A DNA stretch of 64,000 bases from Escherichia coli. Lineage in GTDB: Bacteria; Pseudomonadota; Gammaproteobacteria; Enterobacterales; Enterobacteriaceae. The stretch lies in assembly GCF_013315695.1 (NCBI RefSeq), contig NZ_CP054353.1. One strand, given 5' to 3'. Position numbers: made by a program. Positions 21,001 through 24,000 of the stretch are shown piece after piece. Numbering within the stretch: position 1 is the first letter of the stretch; each line of letters begins with the position of its first letter.

Positions 21001-24000
21001 TTTGCGAGAAAATCCGGATTTGGTGTTACTCGACATCATGCTACCAGGCAAGGACGGCATGACCATTTGTCGTGATTTATGCGCAAAGTGGTCCGGACCG
21101 ATTGTTCTTCTAACCTCTCTCGATAGCGATATGAACCACATCCTGGCACTGGAAATGGGTGCCTGCGATTATATTCTCAAAACGACGCCCCCTGCTGTTT
21201 TGTTAGCGCGTTTACGTTTGCATTTGCGTCAAAATGAGCAAGCCGCACTGAGCAAAGGTCTTCAGGAAACGTCTCTGACTCCCTACAAAGCCCTGCATTT
21301 CGGCACGTTGACCATCGATCCTATCAACCGCGTAGTCACCCTGGCTAACACTGAAAGCTCGCTCTCGACAGCTGATTTCGAATTATTGTGGGAATTAGCT
21401 ACCCATGCCGGGCAAATCATGGACCGCGATGCATTGCTGAAAAATTTACGCGGCGTCAGTTATGACGGCCTGGATCGTAGCGTGGACGTGGCTATTTCGC
21501 GGTTAAGAAAAAAACTGCTCGATAACGCCGCAGAACCTTATCGCATTAAAACTGTGCGTAACAAAGGCTATCTTTTTGCGCCTCATGCATGGGAATAAGC
21601 GATGAAAAAACTGTTTATCCAGTTTTACCTGTTATTGTTTGTCTGCTTCCTTGTGATGTCTCTGCTGGTCGGGCTGGTGTACAAATTTACCGCCGAACGC
21701 GCGGGCAAACAGTCGCTGGATGATTTGATGAACAGTTCGCTGTATCTGATGCGTAGCGAATTGCGTGAGATCCCCCCACACGACTGGGGTAAGACGCTGA
21801 AAGAGATGGATTTAAATCTCTCTTTCGATCTGCGTGTCGAGCCACTGAGTAAATACCATCTGGATGATATTTCCATGCACCGGCTGCGTGGCGGCGAAAT
21901 TGTCGCTCTGGACGATCAGTACACCTTTTTGCAACGTATCCCGCGCAGCCACTACGTGCTGGCAGTTGGTCCTGTTCCTTATCTTTATTACCTCCATCAG
22001 ATGCGATTACTGGATATCGCCCTGATCGCTTTTATTGCCATTTCCCTCGCCTTTCCGGTGTTTATCTGGATGCGTCCGCACTGGCAGGATATGTTAAAAC
22101 TGGAAGCAGCGGCGCAACGATTTGGCGATGGGCATCTCAATGAACGTATCCACTTTGATGAGGGTTCGAGCTTTGAACGCCTTGGCGTCGCATTTAACCA
22201 GATGGCGGACAATATCAACGCCTTGATTGCCAGCAAAAAACAGCTTATTGACGGTATCGCTCACGAACTGCGAACACCGTTAGTGCGCCTGCGTTATCGA
22301 CTGGAGATGAGCGATAACCTGAGCGCCGCCGAATCCCAGGCGTTGAATCGCGATATCAGTCAACTTGAAGCTTTAATTGAAGAGCTGCTGACTTATGCCC
22401 GACTCGATCGCCCACAAAATGAGCTTCATCTTAGCGAGCCAGACCTGCCGTTGTGGCTGTCAACGCATCTGGCAGATATTCAGGCAGTAACGCCCGATAA
22501 AACGGTACGGATAAAAACGCTCATGCAAGACCATTATGCGGCGTTGGATATGCGCTTAATGGAGCGCGTGCTGGATAATTTGCTCAATAACGCCCTGCGC
22601 TACTGTCACTCAACGGTTGAAACCAGCCTGCTACTGTCGGGGAATAGAGCGACATTAATTGTTGAGGATGATGGCCCAGGGATTGCCCCTGAAAACCGCG
22701 AACATATCTTTGAACCTTTTGTTCGACTCGATCCCAGCCGGGATCGCTCAACCGGCGGCTGCGGGCTGGGGTTGGCAATTGTCCACTCTATAGCACTGGC
22801 AATGGGCGGTACGGTTAATTGTGACACCAGCGAACTGGGTGGTGCCCGCTTCTCGTTTAGCTGGCCGTTATGGCATAACATCCCGCAATTTACCTCTGCT
22901 TGACATTACGCGCACGGTGGTCAAGTCACCACCACTGTGCTATAAAATAAGGATGTTGTAACTAAAGTGGTTAATATTATGGCGCGTTACGATCTCGTAG
23001 ACCGACTCAACACTACCTTTCGCCATATGGAACAAGAACTGGCTGCATTTGCCGCTGAGCTAGAACAGCACAAATTGCTGGTTGCCCGCGTGTTCTCTTT
23101 GCCGGAGGTAAAAAAAGAGGATGAGCATAATCCGCTTAATCGTATTGAGGTAAAGCAACATCTCGGCAACGACGCGCAGTCGCTGGCGTTACGTCATTTC
23201 CGCCATTTATTTATTCAACAACAGTCCGAAAATCGCAGCAGCAAGGCCGCTGTTCGTCTACCTGGCGTGTTGTGTTACCAGGTCGATAACCTTTCGCAAG
23301 CAGCGTTGGTCAGTCATATTCAGCGCATCAATCAACTCAAGACTACGTTCGAGCATATCGTCACGGTTGAGTCAGAACTCCCCACAGCGGCGCGTTTTGA
23401 ATGGGTGCATCGTCATTTGCCGGGGCTGATCACCCTTAATGCTTACCGAACGCTCACTGTTCTGCACGACCCCGCCACTTTACGTTTTGGCTGGGCCAAT
23501 AAACATATCATTAAGAATTTGCATCGTGATGAAGTCCTGGCACAGCTGGAAAAAAGCCTGAAATCACCGCGCAGTGTCGCACCGTGGACGCGCGAGGAGT
23601 GGCAAAGAAAACTGGAGAGAGAGTATCAGGATATTGCTACCCTGCCACAGGACGCGAAGTTAAAAATCAAACGTCCGGTGAAGGTGCAGCCGATTGCCCG
23701 CGTCTGGTACAAGGGAGATCAAAAACAAGTACAACACGCTTGCCCTACACCGCTTATTGCGCTGATTAATCGGGATAATGGCGCGGGCGTGCCGGACGTT
23801 GGGGAGTTGTTAAATTACGATGCCGACAATGTGCAACACCGTTATAAACCACAGGCGCAGCCGCTTCGTTTGATCATTCCCCGGCTGCACCTGTATGTAG
23901 CAGATTAACGCCCGGCTTTCATACTGCCGACCATCTGTTCTGGCCGTACCCAGCTGTCAAACTCGGCTTCGCTAAGATACCCCAGCGCAAGGGCCGCCGC

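Follow-up and report, generated by a model that had tools for sequence, protein, structure and literature searches.

The 64,000-nucleotide stretch of Escherichia coli DNA analysed here (contig NZ_CP054353.1; hereafter the window) carries tus, the gene for the protein that binds replication terminus (Ter) sites, with the site TerB in front of it, and a copy of the insertion sequence (IS) IS4 that joins the neighbouring fumC gene to a block of genes located elsewhere in K-12. In the reading that we favour, and to which we assign a probability of about 0.82, the TerB-tus unit is canonical, an inversion between IS4 copies and a nested inversion between IS2 copies have moved TerB across the dif site and reversed it, and the fork trap has stayed intact.

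The window and strain MSB1_4I

Among 5,426 complete E. coli genomes, the only full-length match of the window is the chromosome of strain MSB1_4I (NZ_LR898874.1), from a human rectal swab in Australia. The window corresponds to the reverse complement of positions 2569765-2504989 of that record, with 99.98% identity and 12 mismatches in a local alignment. In MSB1_4I, asr is interrupted by a 768-bp IS1 (2558843-2559610), which is missing from the window, where its 9-bp target occurs singly (10147-10155). Because of the mismatches and the missing IS1, the window is a sibling isolate or assembly of MSB1_4I, distinct from NZ_LR898874.1 itself. Everything on the chromosome beyond the 64-kb window was read from the MSB1_4I record. 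Our search of the literature on strain MSB1_4I found nothing relevant.

Origin of the IS4 junction

The junction in the window, J1, reads fumC / IS4 / 'ydeQ-ydeP (Table 1), and the two flanks of its IS4 do not match: one is GTCCCCAGGGAG, and the other is CCGCCCTTCGGGG. According to annotation and mapping, the genes beyond IS4 (block A) correspond to K-12 from ~1.587 down to 1.55 Mb and are reversed relative to the tus block. In K-12 they lie ~100 kb from tus, across dif, and run in the opposite direction. MSB1_4I contains a reciprocal junction, J2, which reads ydeS-ydeR-ydeQ' / IS4 (2674174-2675599, in inverted orientation) / fumA-manA. The flanks of J2 are the complementary duplication halves, i.e., the reverse of J1. 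The record's third IS4 serves as an internal control, its 13-bp duplication, CCCCTTACCGGAG, being intact.

The presumed precursor of this arrangement is preserved in isolate AF3 (NZ_OZ547117.1), which is 100% identical over the tus side. AF3 has both fumC-IS4-fumA and ydeQ'-IS4-'ydeQ, each with its duplication intact and with the two copies mutually inverted, while in strain MS 21-1 the fumC/fumA copy is the only one of the two. The fumC-IS4-fumA insertion occurs in 14 of the 5,426 genomes, ydeQ::IS4 in three and the recombinant junction J1 in one. Judged by these sequences, in particular the swapped duplication halves at J1 and J2 and the precursor state kept in AF3, the IS4 junction arose when two inverted IS4 copies recombined homologously and so inverted the DNA between them. 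An earlier note on this DNA had raised the question of whether the junction reflects a real inversion, and the mismatched flanks, the complementary halves at J2 in MSB1_4I and the intact duplications in AF3 all answer that it does. The lineage would first have gained two inverted IS4 copies, in the fumA/fumC intergenic region and in ydeQ, as in AF3, and recombination between them would then have inverted a ~132-kb interval with dif, TerC and TerB. In the literature on IS4 inversions of the terminus we found no published account of this event.

Two observations concern the insertion site itself. The 13-bp target of the fumA/fumC IS4 lies at a GC-rich hairpin with a T-run after fumA (GCCGCCCTTCGGGGCGGTTTTTTT), which we read as the fumA terminator. 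The insertion point is 136 nt upstream of the fumC start (25309-25444), so any read-through from fumA into fumC would already have been cut off in the precursor. The open reading frame (ORF) at 25458-26804, next to fumC, was considered as a possibly truncated fumA, a reading that was rejected, as it is the IS4 transposase by annotation.

A probable second inversion nested within the first

A single 132-kb inversion between the IS4 copies would flip TerB, TerC and dif together. This model was rejected for MSB1_4I, in which the lsr-mar-Qin region runs as in K-12 relative to block A, and its failure leads to a nested inversion between two copies of IS2. Past rspB and a prophage integrase gene, the record continues with the 3' part of an exonuclease gene, IS2, a fragment of an usher gene, a yneL fragment and dif. 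After dif come an autotransporter gene with an IS4, lsrK...tam, TerC, mar, dgcZ and the Qin prophage, and these are followed by the 5' part of the exonuclease gene, a second IS2, another usher fragment, ydeS, ydeR and ydeQ'. The two IS2 copies (2581150-2582466 and 2670135-2671451) are mutually inverted, and the 5-bp usher duplication AAATG is divided between them. The usher gene of AF3 also contains an IS2 and continues on the far side of it.

These junctions suggest that, in MSB1_4I, the IS2 in the ydeT usher gene recombined with the IS2 in the exonuclease gene of the Qin prophage, which would have re-inverted the inner 88 kb with dif, TerC, lsr, mar and the Qin prophage. Two inversions leave the inner 88 kb oriented as at the start. 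What has changed overall is the placement of the 37.6-kb block rspB...rstAB-TerB-tus-fumC and the 2.7-kb ydeQ'RS block, each of which is now reversed and on the other's former side of dif.

Some details of this region stand apart from the order of its segments. The second IS2 copy (2670135-2671451) is without the last 14 bp of its right end. In MSB1_4I the neighbours of dif on its two sides are fragments of yneL and of a yneO-like autotransporter gene (2583507-2586118), the hipBA toxin-antitoxin genes that flank it in K-12 are absent beside it, and the autotransporter gene there is split by the third IS4.

Ter order and the replication fork trap

In K-12 the order of sites is TerA (-), dif (-; 1,590,750), TerC (+; 1,609,157) and TerB (+; 1,684,226), while in MSB1_4I it is TerA (-), TerB (-), dif and TerC (+). 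The relation of dif to TerC is that of K-12, on different strands and 17-18 kb apart. TerB has been relocated, from 93 kb past dif on the TerC side in K-12 to 38 kb from dif on the TerA side, where it is now on TerA's strand. The suggestion that the orientation of this site relative to the forks may differ from the reference therefore holds at the scale of the genome, with both the strand of TerB and its side of dif changed from K-12 when oriC, dif and TerC are taken as the frame of reference.

The established behaviour of TerB is that the C6 lock stops forks meeting the G6/position-1 end first, i.e., those coming from rstB, and that forks arriving through tus pass. The blocking end of a Ter site is the end where C6 is unwound (PMC8347550), and in K-12 TerA blocks the anticlockwise fork while TerC and TerB block the clockwise fork (PMC8707476; PMC8347550). 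In the window, the non-permissive (G6) end of TerB faces the rstB side. Because TerB shares the strand of TerA and not that of TerC, we assign it the polarity of TerA, and it should block the fork that TerA blocks. It would thus be predicted to pass the fork coming from the TerA side through fumC and tus toward dif, and to arrest the other fork, after that fork has crossed TerC and dif, 38 kb beyond dif.

The innermost trap, TerB-TerC, spans 55 kb, compared with ~260 kb for TerA-TerC. In MSB1_4I the innermost sites turn their non-permissive faces toward each other across dif, and oriC is outside. The TerB-TerC interval includes dif and also the point opposite oriC (~2,593,030), and the arms from oriC to dif measure 2.630 and 2.648 Mb. 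Counts of the FtsK orienting polar sequence (KOPS), GGGNAGGG, on the + strand are 7:0 to the left of dif and 0:7 to its right, with the switch exactly at dif, and the KOPS polarity of the tus block fits its new arm. The trap, and the polarity of Ter sites and KOPS toward dif, are kept because the inversion endpoints flank dif. The expectation in the earlier note that a flipped Ter site would matter for fork trapping was therefore right in that the relation of TerB to the forks has changed; the trap is not broken by this change, having been tightened to 55 kb. In addition, TerC has lost its nearby back-up site, and by K-12 order the next site of TerC polarity is presumably TerF.

The TerB-tus unit

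The site in front of tus, AATAAGGATGTTGTAACTAAAGT, is identical to K-12 TerB at 22 of 23 bases, with T7 changed to G as the sole difference. The defining features of a Ter site are G6, whose partner on the other strand is the C6 lock base, and the A8-A19 core (PMC8707476). Both are unchanged from K-12 (G6 at 22951, the core at 22953-22964). G at position 7 is also TerC's own base, and variation at this position is reported to be tolerated, the base making no specific contact (PMC8347550). The final base of TerB (22968) is 11 bp from the A of the tus ATG (22979), with 10 bases intervening. K-12 has equal spacing, as its TerB ends at 1684248 and its tus ATG is at 1684259. The site is thus in the rstB-tus intergenic region and within ~50 bp 5' of the tus start, the autoregulatory arrangement of TerB. 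Aligned with MG1655, the 125 bp between the rstB end and the tus start contain five differences from K-12. Its identity to the K-12 site and the equal offset bear out the assignment of this site as TerB in the tus 5' region. A distance of 11 bp had been given for the Ter core; that figure is correct for the full 23-bp site, and from the end of the 11-nt core to the ATG it is 14 bp.

The window has a single exact copy of the Ter core, GTTGTAACTAA, which falls within AATAAGGATGTTGTAACTAAAGT (22955-22965, + strand). The chance expectation for an exact 11-mer is ~0.03 occurrences per 2 x 64 kb, and with one mismatch allowed, two matches were found versus 0.67 expected. The second of these, GCTGTAACTAA (15047-15069, with the match at 15057), is at the 5' end of pntB, a gene on the - strand. 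It is without G6, A8, T9 and T11, and was rejected as a chance match. The identification of TerB accordingly relies not on the core match alone but on the match to K-12 at 22/23 bases and on a conserved place in front of the gene for a 309-aa Tus.

The protein encoded downstream is identical to K-12 Tus at 302 of 309 residues (98%). It scores 456 bits against Pfam PF05472 (cut-off 22) and matches PDB 1ECR/2I06 with E=3.5e-203, so the genome carries tus by Pfam, PDB and K-12 identity alike. The seven substitutions are at residues 16, 23, 27, 116, 119, 221 and 225, none of which is known from the structures to be a C6-pocket or core-contact residue. Downstream, the convergent stop codons of tus (TAA, 23906-23908) and fumC (TAA on the - strand, 23905-23907) share the sequence TTAA. 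The 4-nt 3' overlap that had been described for the two genes is thus confirmed and is simply the K-12 arrangement, in which tus occupies 1684259-1685188 and fumC 1685185-1686588. By itself, the TerB-tus unit is the reference, textbook arrangement.

Tus bound to TerB represses transcription of tus and makes a polar barrier to replication forks. The K-12 work on autoregulation through TerB is that of Roecklein 1991/1992, as cited in PMC8707476, and by analogy tus in this strain would also be autoregulated.

As side observations, the 3' end of rstB reads CTTGACAT where K-12 has CCTGACAC, which yields a perfect TTGACA hexamer at 22900-22905. This hexamer is 34 nt 5' of the TATAAA that precedes TerB, a spacing too long for a standard sigma-70 promoter. 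The scan for terminators gave only one terminator-like match, inside rstB.

Alternative explanations

Several observations weigh against the reading that we favour. The genome-scale picture comes from MSB1_4I, as the window's own 64 kb reach neither J2 nor the IS2 junctions. GC skew in the window is too weak and noisy, this close to the terminus, to help with orientation, and KOPS counts were used in its place. A scan for the sigma-70 consensus upstream of tus gave no promoter match, which is why the case for autoregulation is built on the K-12 literature. The main uncertainties are that the inversions are predicted from assembled sequence only, and that the view of the window's own genome spans 64 kb. 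IS4 and IS2 repeats could have been mis-joined in an assembly whose true chromosome is like that of AF3 or K-12, with TerB on the TerC side. J1 is unique among the genomes searched, the breakpoints are all repeats of 1.3-1.4 kb, two nested events are required, and a mis-join across 1.4-kb repeats would produce identical swapped duplications. We nevertheless consider such an artefact improbable, since the window, a distinct sequence by its mismatches and its uninterrupted asr, has the same J1, the four junctions are all exactly reciprocal, the KOPS polarity agrees fully with the assembled order, and the point opposite oriC lies within the rearranged trap.

Doubt could also be directed at the genome of the window alone, which might have undergone the IS4 inversion with no IS2 event. 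In that case TerB and TerC would have been flipped together to a single side of dif, and the other fork would have its nearest barrier at TerF, hundreds of kb off, giving a wide and lopsided trap. The window stops 11 kb before the IS2 junction and is not identical to MSB1_4I, which leaves room for this proposal, but the 99.98% identity to a genome whose record has both inversions makes it quite improbable. The proposal that this match to Ter is fortuitous or decayed and is not bound by Tus, owing either to the change at position 7 or to the substitutions in Tus, has in its favour that the site carries a base change and the protein seven amino-acid changes, and that binding by this strain's Tus is a prediction. 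We regard it as extremely improbable: G6 and the entire A8-A19 core are intact, G7 is native in TerC, the changed Tus residues are presumably outside the C6 pocket and core contacts, and position 7 is without base-specific contact (PMC8347550). The nested inversions, with a canonical TerB moved and reversed across dif, thus remain our preferred explanation.

Comparison with known fork traps

Compared with the K-12 TerB-tus unit, the unit described here has the same site at 22 of 23 bases, the same 11-bp offset, a 98% identical Tus, the same rstB and fumC flanks and the same 4-nt stop overlap. It differs in having G for T at position 7, and in that its strand and its side of dif are opposite relative to TerC and oriC. 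In function, the window's TerB would therefore group with TerA, TerD and TerE, whereas K-12 TerB groups with TerC, TerF and TerG.

Goodall et al. 2021 (PMC8347550) surveyed the fork traps of E. coli and Shigella. Their E. coli genomes all have dif between terA and terC, while in several S. flexneri and S. boydii genomes it is between terC and terB owing to a flipped terC (PMC8347550). The Shigella traps resemble the one described here in that dif lies between facing terB and terC, in a trap that is intact and narrower than TerA-TerC. They differ in that terC is flipped there, whereas here terB and tus are flipped and terC and dif are kept, the mirror image. Also unlike the Shigella comparison, the mechanism proposed here is resolved in the sequence itself: an inversion between IS4 copies and, nested within it, one between IS2 copies. 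Like the rearrangements of IAI39, SMS-3-5 and EDL933, this one is natural and moves terB with tus or inverts the inner termination area with the trap unbroken (PMC8347550). In IAI39, terB/tus is relocated, terB having traded places with terE, and the inner cluster is looser (PMC8347550); here, by contrast, no site of the opposite arm is closer to dif than terB, and the trap is tightened to 55 kb. The narrow type I traps of Enterobacterales outside the Enterobacteriaceae, e.g., Edwardsiella tarda (Toft et al. 2021, PMC8707476), likewise have a tus-adjacent Ter site innermost around dif. The strain described here differs from them in retaining TerC and outer sites (TerA was verified), and its narrow trap is recent and secondary, not ancestral.

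Implications

The rearrangement is another example of the documented natural variation of the terminus. In a chromosome of the MSB1_4I type, one of the two main barriers to the clockwise fork would be reassigned to the opposite fork, and the trap would be about five-fold smaller. Such a chromosome supports the view, already published, that the terminus tolerates rearrangement if the polarity of Ter sites toward dif is kept and dif remains between the innermost Ter sites. MS 21-1 (one IS4), AF3 (two, not inverted) and MSB1_4I (inverted) also form a near-isogenic series for studying trap width and the role of back-up Ter sites.

A more speculative idea, which we think doubtful, is that the nested IS inversions are non-neutral and were retained for re-centring the termination zone. 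Reversing both inversions in silico shifts dif and TerC to positions ~35 kb lower, which leaves the point opposite oriC outside the innermost trap, ~27 kb past TerC. With the inversions in place, the same point is between dif and TerC, as in K-12. If the idea were true, MSB1_4I would be a natural E. coli with a 55-kb trap, a tus-adjacent Ter site innermost and TerC without a near back-up, and would offer a ready test of back-up sites and trap width.

A terminus-spanning outer inversion

Sampled at several positions, the MSB1_4I record differs from K-12 by one more large inversion, which spans the terminus and has its breakpoints in the 1.80-2.00 and 3.40-3.70 Mb intervals of the record. By the K-12 map, coordinates decrease for folP...argG (record 0.6 Mb, K-12 3.32 Mb), emrY-dsdC (1.6 Mb, 2.48 Mb) and bcr-yejB (1.8 Mb, 2.28 Mb), and again for dcuC-citC (3.7 Mb, 0.65 Mb). 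Between them, they increase for pyrD-rlmL (record 2.0 Mb, K-12 1.00 Mb), mdtH-flgN (2.1 Mb, 1.13 Mb), hiuH-zinT (3.1 Mb, 2.04 Mb) and dld-mdtQ (3.4 Mb, 2.22 Mb). The outer inversion extends roughly from K-12 0.65-1.00 to 2.23-2.27 Mb. The samples at 1.3 and 1.9 Mb of the record are prophage and gave no synteny information; the prophage at 1.90 Mb is P2-like and is near one of the outer breakpoint intervals. TerA, TerB, TerC and dif are all contained in the outer inversion, and because dif is spanned too, the polarity of Ter sites toward dif is unchanged. The outer inversion resembles that of SMS-3-5 (PMC8347550).

Other features

Table 1. Coordinates of the features discussed, in the window or in the MSB1_4I record (NZ_LR898874.1)
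Feature	Position	Strand	Remarks
Window part of the inverted rspB...tus-fumC block	window 1-25444	+	ynfF...asr...pntBA...rstAB-TerB-tus-fumC
rstB	window 21602-22903	+	ORF list and RefSeq annotation of the 99.98%-identical record
TerB, 23-bp Tus site	window 22946-22968	+	AATAAGGATGTTGTAACTAAAGT; 22/23 bases as in K-12 TerB
tus, DNA replication terminus site-binding protein, 309 aa	window 22979-23908	+	ATG 22979-22981
TTAA, overlapping stops of convergent tus and fumC	window 23905-23908	.	same in K-12
fumC, class II fumarase	window 23905-25308	-	ORF list and RefSeq annotation
Half of the 13-bp target-site duplication of the fumA/fumC IS4	window 25432-25444	-	CCGCCCTTCGGGG; partner beside fumA at J2 in MSB1_4I
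IS4, 1426 bp, recombined copy forming J1	window 25445-26870	-	transposase WP_000483766.1
Half of the 12-bp duplication of the ydeQ IS4	window 26871-26882	-	GTCCCCAGGGAG; partner at the ydeQ' junction in MSB1_4I
Block A	window 26871-64000	+	'ydeQ remnant, ydeP, safA, ydeO, ydeN, ydeM, yddA, yddB, pqqL, gadB, gadC, digH, IS1, dosP ... fdnG
TerA	MSB1_4I 2,338,772-94	-	
TerB	MSB1_4I 2,546,021-43	-	
dif	MSB1_4I 2,583,938-65	-	canonical form
TerC	MSB1_4I 2,600,993-2,601,015	+	
oriC	MSB1_4I ~5,232,100	n/a	between mioC and mnmG

The 230-kb terminus region of MSB1_4I contains at least seven IS1, three IS4, two IS2, one IS30 and one ISKpn26, a count by which we describe this lineage as IS-rich. Within block A of the window, an IS1 at 46438-47206 lies between digH and a dosP that is truncated N-terminally. 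A low-GC stretch (0.40-0.46) at ~28000-42000 covers ydeP-safA-ydeO-ydeN-ydeM-yddA; since K-12 has this stretch too, it is unlinked to the rearrangement.

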